Of a stretch of DNA of 20,000 nt, positions 1 through 12,434 are shown one piece after another. Made by a program: the position numbers and the translations under genes. Source of the stretch: an uncultured virus (IMG/VR IMGVR_UViG_3300042569_002050) (lineage: Duplodnaviria > Heunggongvirae > Uroviricota > Caudoviricetes). Location of the stretch: positions 112,148-132,147 of the IMG/VR virus record IMGVR_UViG_3300042569_002050, one strand, 5' to 3'. A model generated the notes under the pieces. It saw only the letters and a program-made list of their open reading frames with translations. It did not search any database and had not been told where the DNA came from. Within the stretch, counting starts at the first letter, position 1; every line of letters starts with the position of its first letter.

Positions 1-110
1 CTCTAATGGCTGTTTCCATGAGGAAAGATGAGGAAGCAGGTGTTGAGGGGTTAAGTGAAGATGATGTTCTTAACATGTTGGGTGGTGTGAAGCCAGTTGC
101 GGAGGCGTAG
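1..110 (+). CDS. 3' end of a hypothetical protein (partial, ...LMAVSMRKDEEAGVEGLSEDDVLNMLGGVKPVAEA*)
   Basis: Frame 3 is open from the window edge to TAG 108-110. The stop abuts the first cassette motif, as for later genes in the array. Confidence 0.6.
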   Translation, partial: LMAVSMRKDEEAGVEGLSEDDVLNMLGGVKPVAEA

Positions 111-161
111 GCTGGCGTAGTTCTTTAGTGTACATTTACGTTATAAATTAAAATTAAAATT
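105..161 (+). promoter_or_regulatory. Early cassette promoter motif copy 1
   Basis: GGCTGG (110-115), N14, GTACATTTA (130-138), then A-rich leader to ATG 162. Confidence 0.7.
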
Positions 162-554
162 ATGGCTACAAGATCATTGATTGGGATTAATTTAGACAAC
201 GGGATTACTAAAATTGTTTACTGCCATTGGGATGGGTATCCATCTGGGGTGGGTCAGACGCTAATGGAAAATTACACTTCACCTACAAAAGTAGATGCGT
301 TGTTGAGATTGGGTGATTTAAGTACACTGGCTTCAACTCCAGAACAATCAGTGGCTTACCACCGCGATAAGAAGGAACCGTGGGGGATGGTTGAACCCAG
401 GGAAGTGAATACTAGTGAATTGGGTACCGTAGCCCAAGATTATGGGGTGGATTACGTGTACACTTATAACGATAATTTCGAATGGGATTGCTCCAGACTG
501 AAGTATGCAGAAGGGGAGCTAGTACCAGTAAAGATAGTAGCCGACGTGGCTTAA
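162..554 (+). CDS. Conserved phage hypothetical protein (YCHWDGYP motif family)
   Basis: 130-aa ORF with MATRSxIG...YCHWDGYP, a pattern recurrent in phage hypothetical proteins; A-rich leader. Confidence 0.8.
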   Translation: MATRSLIGINLDNGITKIVYCHWDGYPSGVGQTLMENYTSPTKVDALLRLGDLSTLASTPEQSVAYHRDKKEPWGMVEPREVNTSELGTVAQDYGVDYVYTYNDNFEWDCSRLKYAEGELVPVKIVADVA

Positions 555-585
555 AAACGGTTCATACTTTTAATTTTTAATGGTT

Positions 586-620
586 AGAGGAGCTGGGTGT
601 CTACCCGGCTCCCTCTTTCT
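586..620 (+). terminator. Hairpin, probable intrinsic terminator
   Basis: GGAGCTGGGT (589-598) / ACCCGGCTCC (603-612), loop GTCT, followed by CTCTTTCT. Confidence 0.65.
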
Positions 621-626
621 ATGCTT

Positions 627-678
627 ATGTGGCTGGTCAAGGCTAGCAGCGTACATTGATGTTATAAAATTAAAAGTT
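627..678 (+). promoter_or_regulatory. Early cassette promoter motif copy 2
   Basis: GGCTGG (631-636), N14, GTACATTGA (651-659); ATG at 679. Confidence 0.75.
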
Positions 679-816
679 ATGATTAAAATTATTAAGAACC
701 TATACGGTTATTTGAGTTGTAAGTACTGTGGTAGAGATTGTGGATCGACTGGTTCAGGAATGTCTATTAACGGTATGTGTGAAAGATGTTATGAAAACGG
801 AGGTGATGACGAATAG
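679..816 (+). CDS. 45-aa putative zinc-ribbon miniprotein (CKYC...CERC)
   Basis: Start reassigned from 580 to ATG 679, downstream of the motif and AAAATTAAAAGTT leader. Two CxxC pairs and an acidic tail. Confidence 0.7.
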   Translation: MIKIIKNLYGYLSCKYCGRDCGSTGSGMSINGMCERCYENGGDDE

Positions 817-825
817 TTAAACCTA

Positions 826-881
826 ACGTGGCGGGGCAGAGTTCACTGCGTATATTTATAACGTAATTAAATTTAAAACGT
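826..881 (+). promoter_or_regulatory. Early cassette promoter motif copy 3
   Basis: ACGT-GGCGGG (830-835), N14, GTATATTTA (850-858); ATG at 882. Confidence 0.75.
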
Positions 882-1097
882 ATGAATATAAGCGCAGACA
901 CTCTCGCATTAATCCGCTCCGAAATTGGAGACTTCACAATATCACAGGTGGGTGGAAGGATCACACTCAGATTTGGCTTCTGGAAACGCGTCAACCTTTA
1001 TCAACTTCAAGACATCCTAGGATCTCAAGCGATGGTGTTTGAGGACGAAATCGAGGATGACGATTGCCGAACCAGATGGAACTACAAGTTAGCTTAA
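882..1097 (+). CDS. Hypothetical protein (71 aa)
   Basis: ORF lies between motif copies 3 and 4 and has an A-rich leader. Confidence 0.75.
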   Translation: MNISADTLALIRSEIGDFTISQVGGRITLRFGFWKRVNLYQLQDILGSQAMVFEDEIEDDDCRTRWNYKLA

Positions 1098-1152
1098 CGT
1101 GGTTGGGCAGGGCTCACATCGTATATTTACACCGTACTTAAAAATAAAAGTT
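1097..1152 (+). promoter_or_regulatory. Early cassette promoter motif copy 4
   Basis: ACGT-GGTTGG (1101-1106), N14, GTATATTTA (1121-1129); ATG at 1153. Confidence 0.75.
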
Positions 1153-1434
1153 ATGAACAAAAAAGAAATCAAAAACGCGATTAACAAAGCAGCATATCAG
1201 TTTGCTGAGTCACTAGGTTACGAAGTGCATGATGATGGAATGGGTGGATCGGTTGCGTTCATCAAACCGGAAACAACAAATTCTGATGACACGATCGAGT
1301 GGAGCCGTAGTTACCATGATACATGCGTGTTGAATTGGGCTAGTGATGAGGCGAAAGCCGACGCCGACAAGATCGACATGCACATGGAGTCGATCATTGA
1401 CGATCTTAAAGCTCAGTACGTTCCGAAAAAATAA
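1153..1434 (+). CDS. Hypothetical acidic protein (93 aa, MNKKEIK...)
   Basis: Start reassigned from GTG 1099, which lies inside the motif, to ATG 1153. Confidence 0.75.
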   Translation: MNKKEIKNAINKAAYQFAESLGYEVHDDGMGGSVAFIKPETTNSDDTIEWSRSYHDTCVLNWASDEAKADADKIDMHMESIIDDLKAQYVPKK

Positions 1435-1439
1435 GCGGA

Positions 1440-1494
1440 ACGTGGCTGGTCAAAGCTATCTGCGTACATTTACGACGTACTTAAAATTAAACGT
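1440..1494 (+). promoter_or_regulatory. Early cassette promoter motif copy 5
   Basis: ACGT-GGCTGG (1444-1449), N14, GTACATTTA (1464-1472); ATG at 1495. Confidence 0.75.
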
Positions 1495-1770
1495 ATGAAC
1501 AGAATAAAAATGATGGCTCTATTGAGCGAAAAGTGGAAGGTGAAGTTCGTAAGAACGACTGAGGAGTTCAATGGTTCAACAGACGGCATCTGGATGTCTG
1601 GTGAGAACGGAGAGACAAACGGTGAAGGATTTGAGCTGTTCGATTATTATAATGAAAATTACGATCAGTATGAGTTCGGCGTTCACCACAGTATCAAGGA
1701 GTGGGCTGAAAGCAGAGGCTGGTACTTCGAGTGGAACGATCCAGGAACAATCATGTTGTGGAAGGATTAA
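1495..1770 (+). CDS. Hypothetical aromatic/acidic protein (91 aa)
   Basis: ORF lies between motif copies 5 and 6; C-terminal GWYFEWNDPGT. Confidence 0.8.
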   Translation: MNRIKMMALLSEKWKVKFVRTTEEFNGSTDGIWMSGENGETNGEGFELFDYYNENYDQYEFGVHHSIKEWAESRGWYFEWNDPGTIMLWKD

Positions 1771-1771
1771 A

Positions 1772-1833
1772 GCGAGGCGGGTCAAGACCCGCTTCATATA
1801 TTTAACGTATAATAAAAATTAAAAATAAAAGTT
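1772..1833 (+). promoter_or_regulatory. Early cassette promoter motif copy 6 (10-bp hairpin)
   Basis: GGCGGG (1776-1781), N14, ATATATTTA (1796-1804); stem GAGGCGGGTC/GACCCGCTTC. Confidence 0.75.
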
Positions 1834-2052
1834 ATGAAGCAATTATTAGATCGCATTGGGTATTCAGTTGTAGGATTAATGGTATTATTATTCTTAGAAG
1901 GGATCGTCACATTAGGTAGTGCATTTAAATTCGAGACGTACAACTGGCTCGGGTACGTTGCACAAGCAATGCTCATTTACCTAGCCGTATGGCTCGCTAA
2001 TAAAGCCTACGATGATGAAGCACCTAAGAAAAACCGTCCAACTACGTTCTAA
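1834..2052 (+). CDS. Small membrane protein, 2 predicted TM helices (72 aa)
   Basis: Hydrophobic stretches IGYSVVGLMVLLFLEGIVTLG and WLGYVAQAMLIYLAVWLA; basic tail. Confidence 0.75.
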   Translation: MKQLLDRIGYSVVGLMVLLFLEGIVTLGSAFKFETYNWLGYVAQAMLIYLAVWLANKAYDDEAPKKNRPTTF

Positions 2053-2103
2053 CGTGGTTGGTCATAGTTCGGTTCGTATATTCACGGTATAAAATTAATA
2101 AGT
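2052..2103 (+). promoter_or_regulatory. Early cassette promoter motif copy 7
   Basis: ACGT-GGTTGG (2056-2061), N14, GTATATTCA (2076-2084); ATG at 2104. Confidence 0.75.
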
Positions 2104-2334
2104 ATGAAGCGTAAAAGCAAAACAAACGATCAAATGCTGATCGAGTTAATCAAGTCAAATACCCCGATGCAAAATGCATTATTAAGGGAACGTATAGTAA
2201 CTATAATGAATGCTACAGTGGATAGCATCACCAACACCCCTGAGAGTTGGAGCAACGGGATAATCCATCCAGGATTGTATCTCGAGTTAAACGATAACGT
2301 GAACGAGAAAATCGGCTTTCAACTTAACAGTTAA
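2104..2334 (+). CDS. Hypothetical protein (76 aa)
   Basis: ORF lies between motif copies 7 and 8. Confidence 0.75.
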   Translation: MKRKSKTNDQMLIELIKSNTPMQNALLRERIVTIMNATVDSITNTPESWSNGIIHPGLYLELNDNVNEKIGFQLNS

Positions 2335-2388
2335 GCGGGGCGGGGCAAAGCCCCGTTCGTATATTTACGTCGTAATAAAAAATAAAAT
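2335..2388 (+). promoter_or_regulatory. Early cassette promoter motif copy 8 (hairpin)
   Basis: GGCGGG (2339-2344), N14, GTATATTTA (2359-2367); stem GGGCGGGGC/GCCCCGTTC with AAA loop. Confidence 0.75.
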
Positions 2389-2607
2389 ATGAGCATGTTA
2401 AAATTCAATGACGGTGAAACGTTTGATTTAAGTGGGCCATTACGTTTAGAAAGACGAAAAGATGGACTGTATGTGGTGGGTGAAAACAGAATGATGGCTG
2501 TAAATGACGCTCTTGAAGGTAAGAAATACATTGAATTCACTAACTACCAACTCGCTCAAATGAGAAAGTGGGATGAGATTGACTTCAGAAACGACGATAG
2601 ATTATAA
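2389..2607 (+). CDS. Hypothetical protein (72 aa)
   Basis: ORF follows motif copy 8 and has an A-rich leader. Confidence 0.75.
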   Translation: MSMLKFNDGETFDLSGPLRLERRKDGLYVVGENRMMAVNDALEGKKYIEFTNYQLAQMRKWDEIDFRNDDRL

Positions 2608-2627
2608 ATCATTAAACTAATAAAAGT

Positions 2628-2834
2628 ATGTTAACGAAACGAATGAACGATTTAGAAAGACAAGCAGACGCGATTGAAGAAGCTGCAGTCAATAAGCAAA
2701 TTAAGGATACAATCGATGTGAACACCTTAATGAACATGAACGATATGTATTACGTAGGCAACCTAGTGGATGTAGATGGTAATGGGTGGGTGACTAAAGC
2801 TGAAGCGCAAGCGATATTAAATGAAATAAGCTAA
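2628..2834 (+). CDS. Hypothetical protein with EF-hand-like loop (68 aa)
   Basis: A-rich leader AATAAAAGT; DVDGNGWVTKAE at codons 48-59. Confidence 0.7.
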   Translation: MLTKRMNDLERQADAIEEAAVNKQIKDTIDVNTLMNMNDMYYVGNLVDVDGNGWVTKAEAQAILNEIS

Positions 2835-2898
2835 TAATCAGCCATTAAATAAGCTATATAAACGATTATCAAGTACTAACCAATAAAGATATAATAAG

Positions 2899-3072
2899 AT
2901 GAAAGTATTAATTAATAATAGTTGGATCGAGCTATCAGTATTTACGGGTATAATGTTCGGTATCGCTGAGGCCGAGGGTGAATTACTTATTATGGTGGGT
3001 CCGTTTGCCGTGATTATTAAGGCGCGGAAGTTTAAAAAACGCAACCGTAAGAAGCACCCGAACGAGCTGTAA
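2899..3072 (+). CDS. 57-aa hypothetical protein, hydrophobic core and basic tail (not in ORF track)
   Basis: Translated by hand: MKVLINNSWIELSVFTGIMFGIAEAEGELLIMVGPFAVIIKARKFKKRNRKKHPNEL*; A-rich leader. Confidence 0.65.
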   Translation: MKVLINNSWIELSVFTGIMFGIAEAEGELLIMVGPFAVIIKARKFKKRNRKKHPNEL

Positions 3073-9226: not shown

Positions 9227-9583
9227 ATGGATGCTAAACAATTCAAATCAGTTATTAAAGAAGCAGTTCGCGAAGCAGTTCGTGAAGAAATTGGCTTAAT
9301 GTTATTGGAACAATTAAAAAGTGGAAATGCTGTACAAAGTAAACCACTTACTGAAAATCGTTCATTATCATTTGATAGTGGGGATGTTCATAGTGTTGGA
9401 ATGAGATCACAAGTTGGTAACAAAATGGCAGAAATGTTCGGAATGCCAGCAGGTGCTAAACCTCAATCAAAAAACCTACAAGTAGATCCAAATAGTGATA
9501 ACCCATTTGCTGCTTTTATTAATGATACTGCTAATAACCTTAGTCCTCAAGAAATGAGACAAATGTTACAATCACAAGGATAA
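9227..9583 (+). CDS. Hypothetical protein (118 aa)
   Basis: N-terminal MDAKQFKSVIKEAVREAVREEI helix. Confidence 0.75.
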   Translation: MDAKQFKSVIKEAVREAVREEIGLMLLEQLKSGNAVQSKPLTENRSLSFDSGDVHSVGMRSQVGNKMAEMFGMPAGAKPQSKNLQVDPNSDNPFAAFINDTANNLSPQEMRQMLQSQG

Positions 9584-9993
9584 TGCCTACACCAAGAATA
9601 TATCGTGTTGATCCTAGAGATTTGCAAAAAAATATTGCAATTGGTCTTAGTATTCCTTTTAATAAGTTCTCTGCTTTTAAAAGCACGTATAGTACTAAAG
9701 AACAGGTAAAATATAATTTAATTAATCTTTTATTAACTAATAAAGGTGAAAGAGTTGAAAATCCTGAATTTGGTTGTGATATTAAAAAGTCTATATTTGA
9801 TTTTATCAACACGGATAATATTAATAAAATTAATAATAACATAAGGGTTGGTGTACAAACATTTATACCTGAAATAAATTTAGAAAACGTAATCATTACC
9901 CCTGAACCAGATCAAAACTATGTAAATGTAAAAGTTGAATATAGTATGAGAATATCAGGAGAAGCGGATGAAATACAAATTAACTTTGAATAA
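9583..9993 (+). CDS. Baseplate wedge subunit, GPW/gp25 family
   Basis: QVKYNLINLLLTNKGERVENPEFGCDI signature; about 136 aa; precedes the gp6-like gene. Confidence 0.9.
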   Translation: MPTPRIYRVDPRDLQKNIAIGLSIPFNKFSAFKSTYSTKEQVKYNLINLLLTNKGERVENPEFGCDIKKSIFDFINTDNINKINNNIRVGVQTFIPEINLENVIITPEPDQNYVNVKVEYSMRISGEADEIQINFE

Positions 9994-11822
9994 TGTCTGA
10001 AACAAAAAACATATCGTATTTAAACAAAAGTTTTAGTGATTTTAAATCAACTTTGATTAATCATGCTAAGACTTATTTCCCTACAGTACATAATGATTTT
10101 TCAGATGCATCACCAGGAATGATGTTTATTGAAATGGCTTCTTATGTAGGAGACGTTTTATCTTTTTATCTAGACACTCAATTCCAAGAAAATTTACTCT
10201 TATACACAAAAGAAAAAAGCAATGCTTTATCTTTAGCTTATGCTTTGGGGTATAGACCTAAAATGTCATATGCTTCATATGTTGATTTACAAATGTCTCA
10301 AAGAGTACCTTTGATTACAAATTTATTAAACAATACACAAATTCCAGATAGTAATTATTATATGATAATTCCTGAGAATAGTGTTGTTGAAAGTATAAAT
10401 GGTGTAAAATTTTTAACTACTGAATTGGTTGATTTTTCTAAAGAAGAAAATAGAACTATATTCTTTGAAAACACAGGATTTGCTAGAGTTACAAAAACCG
10501 TAAAAGCAATCTCAGCAGAAATTAAAACAACTACTGTTGATTTTGGACAAACCCCACAAAAATTCACAAGTACTACTATATCTGATAATCGAATATTAAA
10601 TATATTACAAGTAACCGATAGTACAAATGGAATTTGGTATGAAGTACCATATTTAGCGCAACAAGGTATCCCACAAAGAGCAACAAACCCAACTTATAAT
10701 ACAGATTCTATTCCGTATTTATTAAGTTATATAGAATCACCTAAAAGATTTGTTACTAGATTTAAAGAAAATGGCGATTTAGAATTACAATTTGGAGCAG
10801 GTATTAATTCATCTTCAGATTCTTCTATATTACCTAATCCAAATAATTTAAGTATTGGTATAGATGCTAACGTATATGACCCAGCTAATTCATTTAATAA
10901 AGCAACCGTAGTAACTACTAGAGAATATGGATTAGCACCAACAGGTGTTTTAACTATAAAATATCTTGTAGGTGGTGGTGTTGCTTCTAATATTTCATCT
11001 AATGAAATCGTAAATAGAAAGTTTAATTTAGCTGATATTACTTTTAATGGTAATGTAACATCTCCACAAAACACTGATATTTTTAATAGTATGATTATAA
11101 CTAATCCTGAACCTGCGGTTGGGGGTAGAGATGAAGATACTGTTGAAGAAATTAGACAAAATACCCTTTATTCATTCTCTTCTCAAAATAGAGTAGTAAC
11201 TAAAGAAGATTACATTAATAGAGTACTTAGCATGCCTAGTCATTTTGGTTCTGTAGCTAAAGTATATGCAATTAATGATTTTGCTCTATCTCAAAATTCA
11301 GGAAATGATCGTTTATTAGATAATAACCCACTATCTATTAGTTTATATACTTTAGGATATAACGCTAATAAACAATTAATCATGCCATCTTCTGTATTAA
11401 AAAATAACATTAAAAATTATTTATCACAGTATAGAATGGCCACTGATGCTATTAATATTAAAAATGCTTATTATCTTAATATAGGTATTAATTTTGATAT
11501 TTCTGTTTTACCAACGTTTAATAATAAAGAAGTATTAAGTAATTGTATAAAAGCATTAAAAGATAAATTTAGCATTGAAAATATGCAAATAAATAAACCA
11601 TTAGTTATATCTGATGTAAATTCAACTTTATTACAAGTTAGAGGAGTTCAATCAATATCTAAGGTTGAAATTGTAAATAAATCTGGAGGTAATTATTCTC
11701 CATATAGCTATGATATTAATGGTGCTATTAGAAATAATATATTGTATCCTTCATTAGACCCATCTATATTTGAAATCAGATTCCCAGATATAGATATACA
11801 AGGAAGAATTGTAACTTTATAA
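9993..11822 (+). CDS. Baseplate wedge subunit, T4 gp6/baseplate J-like
   Basis: DFSDASPGMMFIEMASYVGDVLSFYLD, LQFGAG and GGRDEDTVEEIR...QNRVVTKEDY signatures. Confidence 0.9.
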   Translation: MSETKNISYLNKSFSDFKSTLINHAKTYFPTVHNDFSDASPGMMFIEMASYVGDVLSFYLDTQFQENLLLYTKEKSNALSLAYALGYRPKMSYASYVDLQMSQRVPLITNLLNNTQIPDSNYYMIIPENSVVESINGVKFLTTELVDFSKEENRTIFFENTGFARVTKTVKAISAEIKTTTVDFGQTPQKFTSTTISDNRILNILQVTDSTNGIWYEVPYLAQQGIPQRATNPTYNTDSIPYLLSYIESPKRFVTRFKENGDLELQFGAGINSSSDSSILPNPNNLSIGIDANVYDPANSFNKATVVTTREYGLAPTGVLTIKYLVGGGVASNISSNEIVNRKFNLADITFNGNVTSPQNTDIFNSMIITNPEPAVGGRDEDTVEEIRQNTLYSFSSQNRVVTKEDYINRVLSMPSHFGSVAKVYAINDFALSQNSGNDRLLDNNPLSISLYTLGYNANKQLIMPSSVLKNNIKNYLSQYRMATDAINIKNAYYLNIGINFDISVLPTFNNKEVLSNCIKALKDKFSIENMQINKPLVISDVNSTLLQVRGVQSISKVEIVNKSGGNYSPYSYDINGAIRNNILYPSLDPSIFEIRFPDIDIQGRIVTL

Positions 11823-11834
11823 ATTAAATAAAAT

Positions 11835-12434
11835 ATGAACCTAGAAAAATTAAAAGGACACATTCCCGAGGCGGTCATAGCCCAAATTCCAGGAGTTATG
11901 GAAAAATTCCAAATAAATACTCCATTAAGATTAGCTCATTTCTTAGCACAATGTGGTCATGAATCAGGTGGATTTAGACTAACAAAAGAAAATTTGAATT
12001 ACAGTGCTAAAGGATTAACAAACACATTTAGAAAATATTTTCCAACAGAAGCATCAGCTGCGGCATATGCTAGAAAACCTGAAAAAATTGCTAACAAGGT
12101 TTACGGTAATAGAATGGGTAATGGACCTGAATCTTCTGGTGATGGTGCTAAATTCTGTGGCCGTGGTTATATTCAATTAACAGGAAAAGACAATTATACT
12201 GCATTTGGTAAATCTATTAATGAAGACTTAATATCAGACCCAACAGTAGTAGCAGGAAAATATGCTTTACTATCAGCTGCATGGTTCTTCAGTAAAAATG
12301 GTTTACATAAATTAGCAGATGGTGGTGCAACTGATGCAGTTGTTACACAAATCACTAAGCGTGTTAACGGTGGAACTATTGGATTAGCAGATAGAATTAA
12401 ACACTTTAAAGAATATCATGCATTATTAGCATAA
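11835..12434 (+). CDS. Glycoside hydrolase family 19 endolysin
   Basis: RLAHFLAQCGHESGGF, ENLNYS, GRGYIQLTGKDNY, SAAWFF, ITKRVNGGTIGLADR. Confidence 0.93.
   Translation: MNLEKLKGHIPEAVIAQIPGVMEKFQINTPLRLAHFLAQCGHESGGFRLTKENLNYSAKGLTNTFRKYFPTEASAAAYARKPEKIANKVYGNRMGNGPESSGDGAKFCGRGYIQLTGKDNYTAFGKSINEDLISDPTVVAGKYALLSAAWFFSKNGLHKLADGGATDAVVTQITKRVNGGTIGLADRIKHFKEYHALLA

Follow-up and report, generated by a model that had tools for sequence, protein, structure and literature searches.

What is the function of a short non-coding stretch between two early genes of an uncultured Caudoviricetes phage that, read on the strand of those genes, is the complement of a translation start region? The stretch lies in the final 20 kb of a 132,147-bp IMG/VR virus record (IMGVR_UViG_3300042569_002050, estimated completeness 77%), and this segment of 20,000 nucleotides (nt), positions 112,148 to 132,147 of the record, is the window referred to throughout. 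The whole record is designated G000, and other G and L numbers denote related records and loci. A preliminary description of the window, made from the sequence alone, had proposed that the stretch yields a small RNA able to mask A-rich translation start regions without a Shine-Dalgarno (SD) sequence, and that it had been acquired as a cassette. Here, we report that window positions 553-626 are one copy of a conserved RNA module of approximately 75 nt in the 3' untranslated region (3'UTR) of an early gene. We consider it somewhat likelier to be right than wrong that this module gives rise to a 3'UTR-borne RNA that acts in trans, as an antisense RNA, to mask an A-rich, SD-less start region in a Bacteroidota-type host. 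The idea of masking by a small RNA therefore holds in one part, an antisense 3'UTR module with a perfect phage target, and fails in another, as neither a cassette nor a conserved host target was found.

The module follows a gene for a protein of 130 amino acids (aa) on the + strand (window 162..554) that belongs to the phrog_1987 family (E = 6e-29). No Pfam family was found for this protein, and its AlphaFold model (predicted local distance difference test score 72) has no PDB fold match at E <= 0.001 (best E = 0.23). The TAA stop codon of the gene (552-554) overlaps a purine-rich, semi-conserved lead-in, AAAAAC (553..558, + strand), which reads AAAGAC, AAAGAA or AAAGAG in the aligned relatives. 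Beginning 4 nt past the stop codon and on the same strand is an invariant, U-rich antisense tract, GGTTCATACTTTTAATTTTTAATGG (559..583), which as RNA is complementary to the target from about -20 to +7, including the AUG, and which is unpaired in the predicted minimum-energy fold. A two-tier hairpin comes next (586..616, core 589-612, + strand), with a lower stem AGAGG/CCTCT, an upper stem AGCTGGGT/ACCCGGCT, one U.G pair and the loop GTCT, and directly after it a pyrimidine-rich tail with a weak U-tract, TTCTATGCTT (617..626, + strand).

Direct reading confirmed the sequence quoted earlier for 551-585, its reverse complement (AACCATTAAAAATTAAAAGT ATG AAC CGT TTT TAA), and the location of the start regions with which it had been compared, at 1481 and 1141. 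The strong hairpin described at 589-612 is also present, and is terminator-like in a scan, with 10 pairs of which 7 are G-C. Comparison of relatives bears out the assignment of the stretch as non-coding and as part of the 3'UTR of the upstream + strand gene, and a search of related phages recovered the same combination of a single-stranded, U-rich, CAT-containing tract and a conserved hairpin. The module occurs independently in many IMG/VR contigs, and 43-98% of the words sampled from window 1-3000 are present in 18 DNA runs with a lake or fresh-water label; an assembly artefact is excluded on these two grounds. An Rfam scan of window 400-800 at E <= 10 returned only three chance-level matches (12.8-14 bits against gathering thresholds of 41-59, E = 7.6-9.6). 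An open reading frame (ORF) of 78 aa opened by the ATG at 580 (AATGG; window 580-816, in phase with a 45-aa gene), which crosses the hairpin and the promoter, was judged to be spurious, since the sequence downstream differs among relatives, and a gene caller might still annotate it.

Relatives were retrieved by means of the 130-aa protein, with no use made of the tract, and this gave 11 loci with 60-100% aa identity. Directly after the gene, a 23-nt core is unchanged in all 11, and the loci differ in the final codons, the linker, the sequence of the hairpin and all that lies downstream. In the eight distinct copies ascertained through the protein, none of the 23 tract columns is variable, compared with 41 of 60 columns elsewhere (Fisher p = 3.5e-9), and the tract columns are likewise invariant (0/23) across all 21 aligned copies. 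Scanning with the exact 25-nt sense string identified 30 places, 21 of them antisense copies on the gene-rich strand with a hairpin and nine of them sense copies at gene starts; every pattern-found antisense copy (21/21) has the tract on the gene-rich strand. Judging from these alignments, the tract is under strong selection.

The ORF that ends at the module encodes a homolog of the 130-aa protein (34-100% identity) in 22 of the 28 distinct copies, and two of the six others (L015, L135) have the same C-terminal codons by eye. Because so many distinct copies follow the same gene family, the module is, to judge by gene order, an old syntenic partner of the 130-aa gene, and this does not support its acquisition as a cassette. 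At L039 and L041, two paralogs on one contig each have their own module. The 130-aa gene is missing from L016 and L029, where the module stands after the preceding gene, whose product ends ...VAEA/...IAEA, as does that of the ORF before the 130-aa gene in the window. At both loci the lead-in is retained as AAAGAAGG with no adjacent stop codon. The persistence of the module in L016 and L029 in the absence of the gene suggests that it is kept for its own sake.

The near-direct repeats said to flank the insert, ACGTGGCT at 544-551 and ATGTGGCT at 627-634, are indeed present but are not general. The pair is confined to close relatives, where the first member is formed by the final codons of the gene and the second by the usual 5' half of the promoter motif that comes next; the final codons read ..GAC GTG GCT in these relatives and ..AAT ATT GCT CTA AAT elsewhere. 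A mobile insert similar to a miniature inverted-repeat transposable element (MITE), with a target-site duplication, was considered and rejected, as the ACGTGGCT/AYGTGGYT flanks occur only in close relatives and there are one or two copies per genome. Terminal inverted repeats around the module were searched for by eye only, and the features of a MITE were not found. A further copy of the module, together with a 130-aa homolog (57% identical), is encoded on L171, a 2.8-kb contig in a metagenome-assembled genome (MAG) labelled Gammaproteobacteria. The contig probably represents phage DNA that ended up in a bacterial MAG during binning.

On which strand does the module act? Folding of a 101-nt stretch gave -33.7 kcal/mol for the + strand (z = -3.18, with 0 of 200 shuffles as good) and -21.2 kcal/mol for the opposite strand (z = -1.70), and the + strand fold is the more stable one in all 27 distinct copies (mean -21.0 vs -16.1 kcal/mol). 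The hairpin shows covariation, in that five of nine consensus pairs are changed on both sides and an inserted C-G pair is compensated. The U.G pair is retained in 16 of 21 copies, and a lower stem with further G.U pairs is present in most of the 27. Since G.U pairs turn into C.A mismatches on the other strand, the structure appears to be selected in the + strand transcript, and the hairpin is likely a terminator or a 3'-end structure of the RNA. A scan with the top of the hairpin identified 40 viral places, 19 with the exact 21-nt core and 21 with unrelated upstream sequence, and no intermediates; the 21 tract-less places look like ordinary terminators. In these 21 of the 40 matches the hairpin top, GCTGGGTnTCTACCCGGC, is reused in unrelated contexts complete with its U.G pair, in many cases followed by TTTTT. 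The tract-less loci include L127, L132, L134, L138, L145, L146, L161 and L164, and one group of eight loci has common flanks.

Invariance and strandedness both bear on one of the cases that the preliminary description had named against its proposal, that the stretch is the relic of an inverted gene start, and on the related idea of a minus-strand mini-gene (MNRF*), in either case without any RNA function on the + strand. The complement carries a perfect leader, an ATG and an AAC, which makes it likely that the stretch arose by inverted copying of a gene start. A relic would be expected to decay, yet the tract is invariant beside neighbour proteins that are 34-100% identical. The minus-strand peptide varies in length and sequence (MNRF*, MNRL*, MNLI*, MNPL*, MNRV*, or a longer product of read-through), the + strand holds almost all genes, and the hairpin is the weaker on the minus strand in all 27 copies. 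Invariance of the tract and variability of the peptide thus oppose this explanation, to which we attach hardly any credence.

If the tract is antisense, what is it antisense to? The complement of window 561-587 occurs at G000 92263-92289 with 27 of 27 nt identical, in the start region of a + strand gene. Within this segment, a 202-aa gene ends with its stop codon, and next come the leader and the ATGAA of a 79-aa membrane-protein gene (G000 92285-92524, + strand), which lies 20.4 kb upstream of the module on the same strand. A 19-nt part of the complement is also found at G000 85990-86008, in the leader of a 216-aa gene (start G000 86012) that is preceded by a terminator and a promoter-like box. 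The 27-nt and 19-nt matches are the two longest inverted repeats in the 132,147-bp record, ahead of an unrelated one of 18 nt, and a control pattern read backwards had no matches in five related records.

Predicted duplex energies point to the same genes. When the tract was compared with the 171 start regions of the record, the 79-aa gene was best (-35.3 kcal/mol) and the 216-aa gene second (-24.1 kcal/mol); for 100 shuffled tracts, the best value was -23.0, the mean best -16.7 and the mean over start regions -7.9 kcal/mol. Most of the remaining top 25 are genes of the early array, at -22 to -14 kcal/mol. In total, 36 of the 171 start regions reach -12 kcal/mol or better, compared with a mean of 11.9 and a maximum of 25 for the shuffled tracts. 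The proposed complementarity to phage start regions is therefore present, as a single outstanding target and a likeness to early leaders. The proposed host targets did not materialize: among 185,579 species genomes, the 21-nt sense core has 16 matches with no host gene in common, and no conserved host gene was found. Of the 16, eleven come from records labelled Bacteroidota, where most stand at the start of genes with no relation to one another; two of the eleven precede frames of only 4-5 codons. Another of the 16, L171, corresponds to the module of the phage.

A single clear hydrophobic helix (residues 20-38, Kyte-Doolittle 2.09) is seen in the 79-aa protein, along with a weaker second hydrophobic stretch and a charged tail. 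An N-terminal hydrophobic helix is also present in the 216-aa protein, in an 84-aa protein of G002 and in an 85-aa protein of L018, and the genes for the latter and for a 166-aa protein of L037 each sit behind an exact sense copy. The 79-aa protein is widespread: it occurs at 159 viral loci and, at E <= 0.001, in 1154 protein clusters, each of them either without a name or labelled "hypothetical". Its sequence is unusually conserved, as the best 80 of the 159 viral loci are 80-100% identical and are on records ranging from 4 to 335 kb. The label "holin-like" was considered for this protein and set aside, being a guess from size and hydrophobicity without any family match.

Action in cis only was also considered. 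In transcripts that read through or are of full length, the tract might fold onto the start of the next gene, or pair with the start of its own gene in a 5'-3' UTR interaction, such that the message is translated only from its proper promoter or at a set level. Consistent with this, the tract is located upstream of the next early promoter and gene, it resembles the complement of the leader common to the early genes, which make up the bulk of the top 25 below the two main targets, and there are precedents for start-site occlusion in phage T4, in genes e, soc, 49 and I-TevI, as outlined in PMC3014915. However, the predicted pairing with its own start is only -10.2 to -12.8 kcal/mol in nine relatives, and that with the start of the next gene -6.1 to -16.1 kcal/mol in eight relatives. 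These energies are near the level of shuffled tracts and far from the value for the distant target. Moreover, of the roughly 25 early junctions in each genome no more than one or two have the tract, and the downstream genes differ among relatives. We regard an exclusively local role as rather improbable.

The distribution of the two copies argues for pairing of the tract with the 79-aa gene in trans. An antisense and a sense copy are present on opposite strands in all six records that span both places (G000, G001, G002, G003, G005 and contig 3300042361_000735). In all six, the sense copy is 12.8-25.3 kb upstream of the module and co-directional with the genes, and the three complete genomes, G001, G002 and G003, have exactly one antisense and one sense copy each. 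G002 is distant from the window, with a 130-aa homolog that is 43% identical and a target-type 84-aa protein that is 32% identical to the 79-aa protein (pairwise E = 2e-4); despite this divergence, 25 of 25 nt are retained in its tract and 23 of 25 in its sense leader. Leaders of 79-aa homologs were compared in the best 80 of the 159 viral loci. Another A-rich sequence forms the leader in the 67 loci whose homolog is 80-88% identical, and the 21-nt core is kept in only about nine of the 80, all at least 91% identical to the 79-aa protein. Four records with other leaders that are 92-100% complete (G010, G012, G016, G022) have no antisense tract with hairpin and no clear 130-aa gene. Across the genomes compared, then, the tract and its matching leader are found together although leaders turn over fast.

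Two additional records, G004 and G006, have a sense copy without a module, but they are uninformative because the place where the module is expected lies past the end of the contig. Eight further viral contigs (L186-L193) have a one-base variant of the sense leader (CCAATAAAAATTAAAAGTATGAA) ahead of a gene whose product begins MKQFL.. or MKQFP... By eye these genes resemble the 84-aa type of G002, and the contigs end short of the expected module place.

A pair of copies in opposite orientation could instead represent a double-stranded DNA site, either an operator for a phage regulator or an inverted pair of recombination sites, in two or three copies per genome and in either orientation. The occurrence of exactly one forward and one reverse copy in the three complete genomes fits this idea, and a DNA site is by definition conserved on both strands. 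A DNA site does not need a fixed orientation to transcription, as seen in 21 of 21 copies, nor a place right after a stop codon, nor a hairpin with G.U pairs on the + strand only. Further, no inverted isomer was seen, and the order of sense copy, interval of 13-25 kb and module is constant in the six records. We consider a DNA site very unlikely.

Several observations weigh against trans-antisense action. The sense leaders of close relatives (L048, L052, L054-L057) vary by 1-3 nt, at the edges or inside, while the tract is constant. Scans for compensating tract variants found no antisense modules among 9 and 34 matches, which were only gene starts, and six records with other 79-aa leaders have no antisense copy of their own leader. 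Thus, covariation of seed and target was not found across relatives, and it is only in presence and absence that the two go together. Total invariance over 23 nt exceeds what pairing to one drifting leader would need, which suggests several targets or some other constraint. Tails in relatives range from U-rich (TTGTTTTGTTAT) to poor (GCTTGGAACGGC), with 2 to 9 T per 12 nt, so that termination at the hairpin is uncertain given the weak U-tract in many copies. The RNA evidence consists of unstranded contigs only, at a depth of 2-6 and with possible carry-over of DNA. In four metatranscriptome runs that were compared, two contigs cover the module: X19 (540-648 joined to 848-987) and X20 (531-657, with unlike sequence before 531). 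No contig covers 301-500 of the upstream gene, and at such depth uncovered parts prove nothing. Finally, the 79-aa protein has no PHROG, Pfam or cultured-phage match and has only "hypothetical protein" names.

Some of these points lead to another explanation, in which the module is a 3'-end element whose tract is not there for antisense pairing but serves, for instance, to bind a phage or host RNA-binding protein or as a signal for stability or processing, and in which the match to a start region merely reflects origin as an inverted leader copy. Invariance at all 23 positions is typical of a site recognised by a protein, the tract does not follow changes in the sense leader, and the module is tightly linked to a single protein family, in 22 of 28 copies. 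In Bacteroidia, small RNAs (sRNAs) are used together with RNA-binding proteins, of which RbpB is an example, according to the account in PMC11697453. On the other hand, this explanation does not account for the exact sense copy at a membrane-protein start in each of the six spanning records, including G002 at 32% protein identity, while the leaders of much closer 79-aa homologs (80-87% identical) have fully turned over. On balance it seems unlikely to us, though not negligibly so.

The antisense reading that we favour depends on the type of host. At the protein level only, the closest cultured relative is the Flavobacterium phage vB_FspM_immuto, with a baseplate protein 44% identical, and a megablast search of window 1-2400 against cultured phages gave no match. 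The + strand carries 172 of the 179 ORFs in a crude ORF map of G000, and the start regions of these 172 are without SD sequences and rich in A (56-68% A at -14 to -11 and 55-58% at -6 to -3), a pattern that has been described in Flavobacterium johnsoniae (summarised in PMC6847099). Based on the nearest cultured phage and on these SD-less, A-rich start regions, the host is probably a Flavobacterium-like member of the Bacteroidota. The module is carried by uncultured myophages of fresh water that form a clade. Among the annotated ORFs, we noted no genes for lysogeny.

In such a host, the module would be transcribed together with the 130-aa gene from an early promoter, and the hairpin would end or stabilise the transcript, leaving the U-rich 25-nt tract exposed in an unstructured state. 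The tract could then pair perfectly over 21-27 nt with the start of the membrane-protein message (about -20 to +7, AUG included), encoded 13-25 kb upstream, and the duplex should shut out the 30S subunit from the start region. A block of this kind would be expected because initiation in Bacteroidia, as characterised in PMC6847099, requires an A-rich leader free of structure rather than SD pairing. A perfect duplex of at least 21 bp may also invite double-strand-specific cleavage. The likely effect would be that synthesis of the membrane protein is held back while early transcription is high, or that an excess of it is avoided. Because the tract resembles the complement of the leader common to about 20 early genes, a weaker and broader damping of early messages is possible as well.

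A bolder version of this idea, which we consider unlikely but worth stating, would make the module an "anti-Kozak" riboregulator, an RNA counterpart of the T4 protein RegA for hosts that do not use SD sequences, acting on a graded set of start regions that includes early leaders. The tract would mirror an optimal A-rich start region of Bacteroidota, of the kind that is also found at unrelated host gene starts. Its perfect match would be a membrane protein, possibly related to lysis, that is held back as a timer, and the early leaders, as weaker targets, could provide an early-to-late switch; host messages might be affected too. Such a role could explain the complete invariance of the tract, which would have to suit many targets.

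The module is part of a larger arrangement of early genes. Window 110-2400, or G000 at approximately 94.7-117 kb, is a + strand array with about 25 intergenic motifs, each ahead of a tiny gene. Its unit consists of a short hairpin or a TGGnnGGnCA box, followed by CGTAYATTTAC and by an A-rich leader ending in GTTATG or GTATG. The motif includes a -7 box which we take to resemble the Bacteroidota type. One copy of the CGTAYATTTA family, an early promoter-leader motif (..TGTACATTTACGTTATAAATTAAAATTAAAATT) with a putative promoter function, lies ahead of the 130-aa gene (111..161, + strand), and the next promoter-leader motif (ATGTGGCTGGTCAAGGCTAGCAGCGTACATTGATGTTATAAAATTAAAAGTT) directly follows the module (627..678, + strand), with the same motif at window positions of approximately 826, 1095, 1438 and 2050. 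Outside the module, a Cys-rich early gene of 45 aa (679..816, + strand) has a start region with a moderate predicted pairing to the tract (-13.8 kcal/mol). This gene is removed in the X19 contig, which joins 648 to 848 and skips 199 nt, with the break between two copies of the promoter motif; at this joint, a gene has been naturally gained or lost at the seams of the motif. Farther along, window proteins match baseplate-wedge and endolysin PHROGs, with baseplate-wedge genes at window 9583-11819 and an endolysin (phrog_181, E = 1e-70) at window 11835-12431. The start of the endolysin gene (ATGAACC..) ranks 10th of the 171 start regions for pairing with the tract, at -17.1 kcal/mol.

If the antisense reading is true, the module shows how phages can time protein synthesis in hosts that ignore SD sequences. 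It would also offer Flavobacterium genetics a natural translation-blocking tract of 25 nt, and would point to a widely conserved 79-aa phage membrane protein whose dose or timing matters. A few temperate coliphages are known to control translation by antisense RNA, and bacteria that use Hfq are known to have 3'UTR-derived sRNAs. The c4 RNA of phages P1 and P7 arises by processing of the 5' portion of the operon that also holds its target, pairs via short loops, and belongs to an immunity system of temperate phages. In our search of titles and abstracts, we met with no virulent-type Bacteroidota phage described as having a conserved trans-antisense module. In its proposed working, the module is most like c4 and the 3'UTR-derived sRNAs. 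As with the c4 antisense RNA (Citron and Schuster, 1990, cited in PMC8198154), a phage RNA would base-pair to control translation of a phage gene that it does not overlap. Unlike c4, the tract of the module is a linear 25-nt stretch in a 3'UTR, with its target 13-25 kb away.

Among bacterial regulators, the closest in layout are the 3'UTR-derived sRNAs as described in PMC7398697 and PMC9731577, in which the regulator uses the terminator hairpin of an mRNA, with a conserved single-stranded seed just upstream of it, and acts in trans on start regions. The module has the corresponding features: it is downstream of a stop codon, on the strand of the gene, with a common 3' hairpin and a conserved seed that is predicted to be unpaired. 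The sRNAs in those accounts are enterobacterial and Hfq-dependent with short imperfect seeds, whereas the module is viral with a perfect complement of 21-27 nt, and its inferred host phylum is served by other RNA-binding proteins, among them RbpB (as presented in PMC11697453). The same source describes the FopS sRNAs of Bacteroides thetaiotaomicron, which repress translation initiation of their targets. They share with the module the Bacteroidota setting and the proposed repression at the 5' ends of target mRNAs, but they are chromosomal, multicopy, stand-alone genes with no relation to it in sequence or structure, and none of the three chance-level Rfam matches is to FopS.

Small hydrophobic proteins are also opposed by antisense RNAs in type I toxin-antitoxin systems, as outlined in PMC2887945. 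This classification was rejected, given that the partners here are 20.4 kb apart in G000 (13-25 kb overall) and neither overlap nor adjoin each other. The surrounding array, with hairpins and early promoters between tiny genes, is similar to the promoter(early) stem-loop (PeSL) cassettes of T4-type phages as portrayed in PMC2839356 and PMC4122927, and has both the repeated motif copies and, at 648-848, the recombination seam expected of that type. The antisense tract is absent from PeSLs, and the module is one special junction with one or two copies per genome. The proposed effect has a parallel in T4 itself where, as reviewed in PMC3014915, the RegA protein blocks A+U-rich sites that contain the AUG, and local hairpins occlude the starts of e, soc, 49 and I-TevI; for gene e, this prevents a lysis protein from being made at the wrong time. 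In both phages, A+U-rich start regions including the AUG would be kept from the 30S subunit. However, RegA is a protein and the T4 occlusions are local hairpins within one transcript, whereas the best complement of the module is on another transcript.

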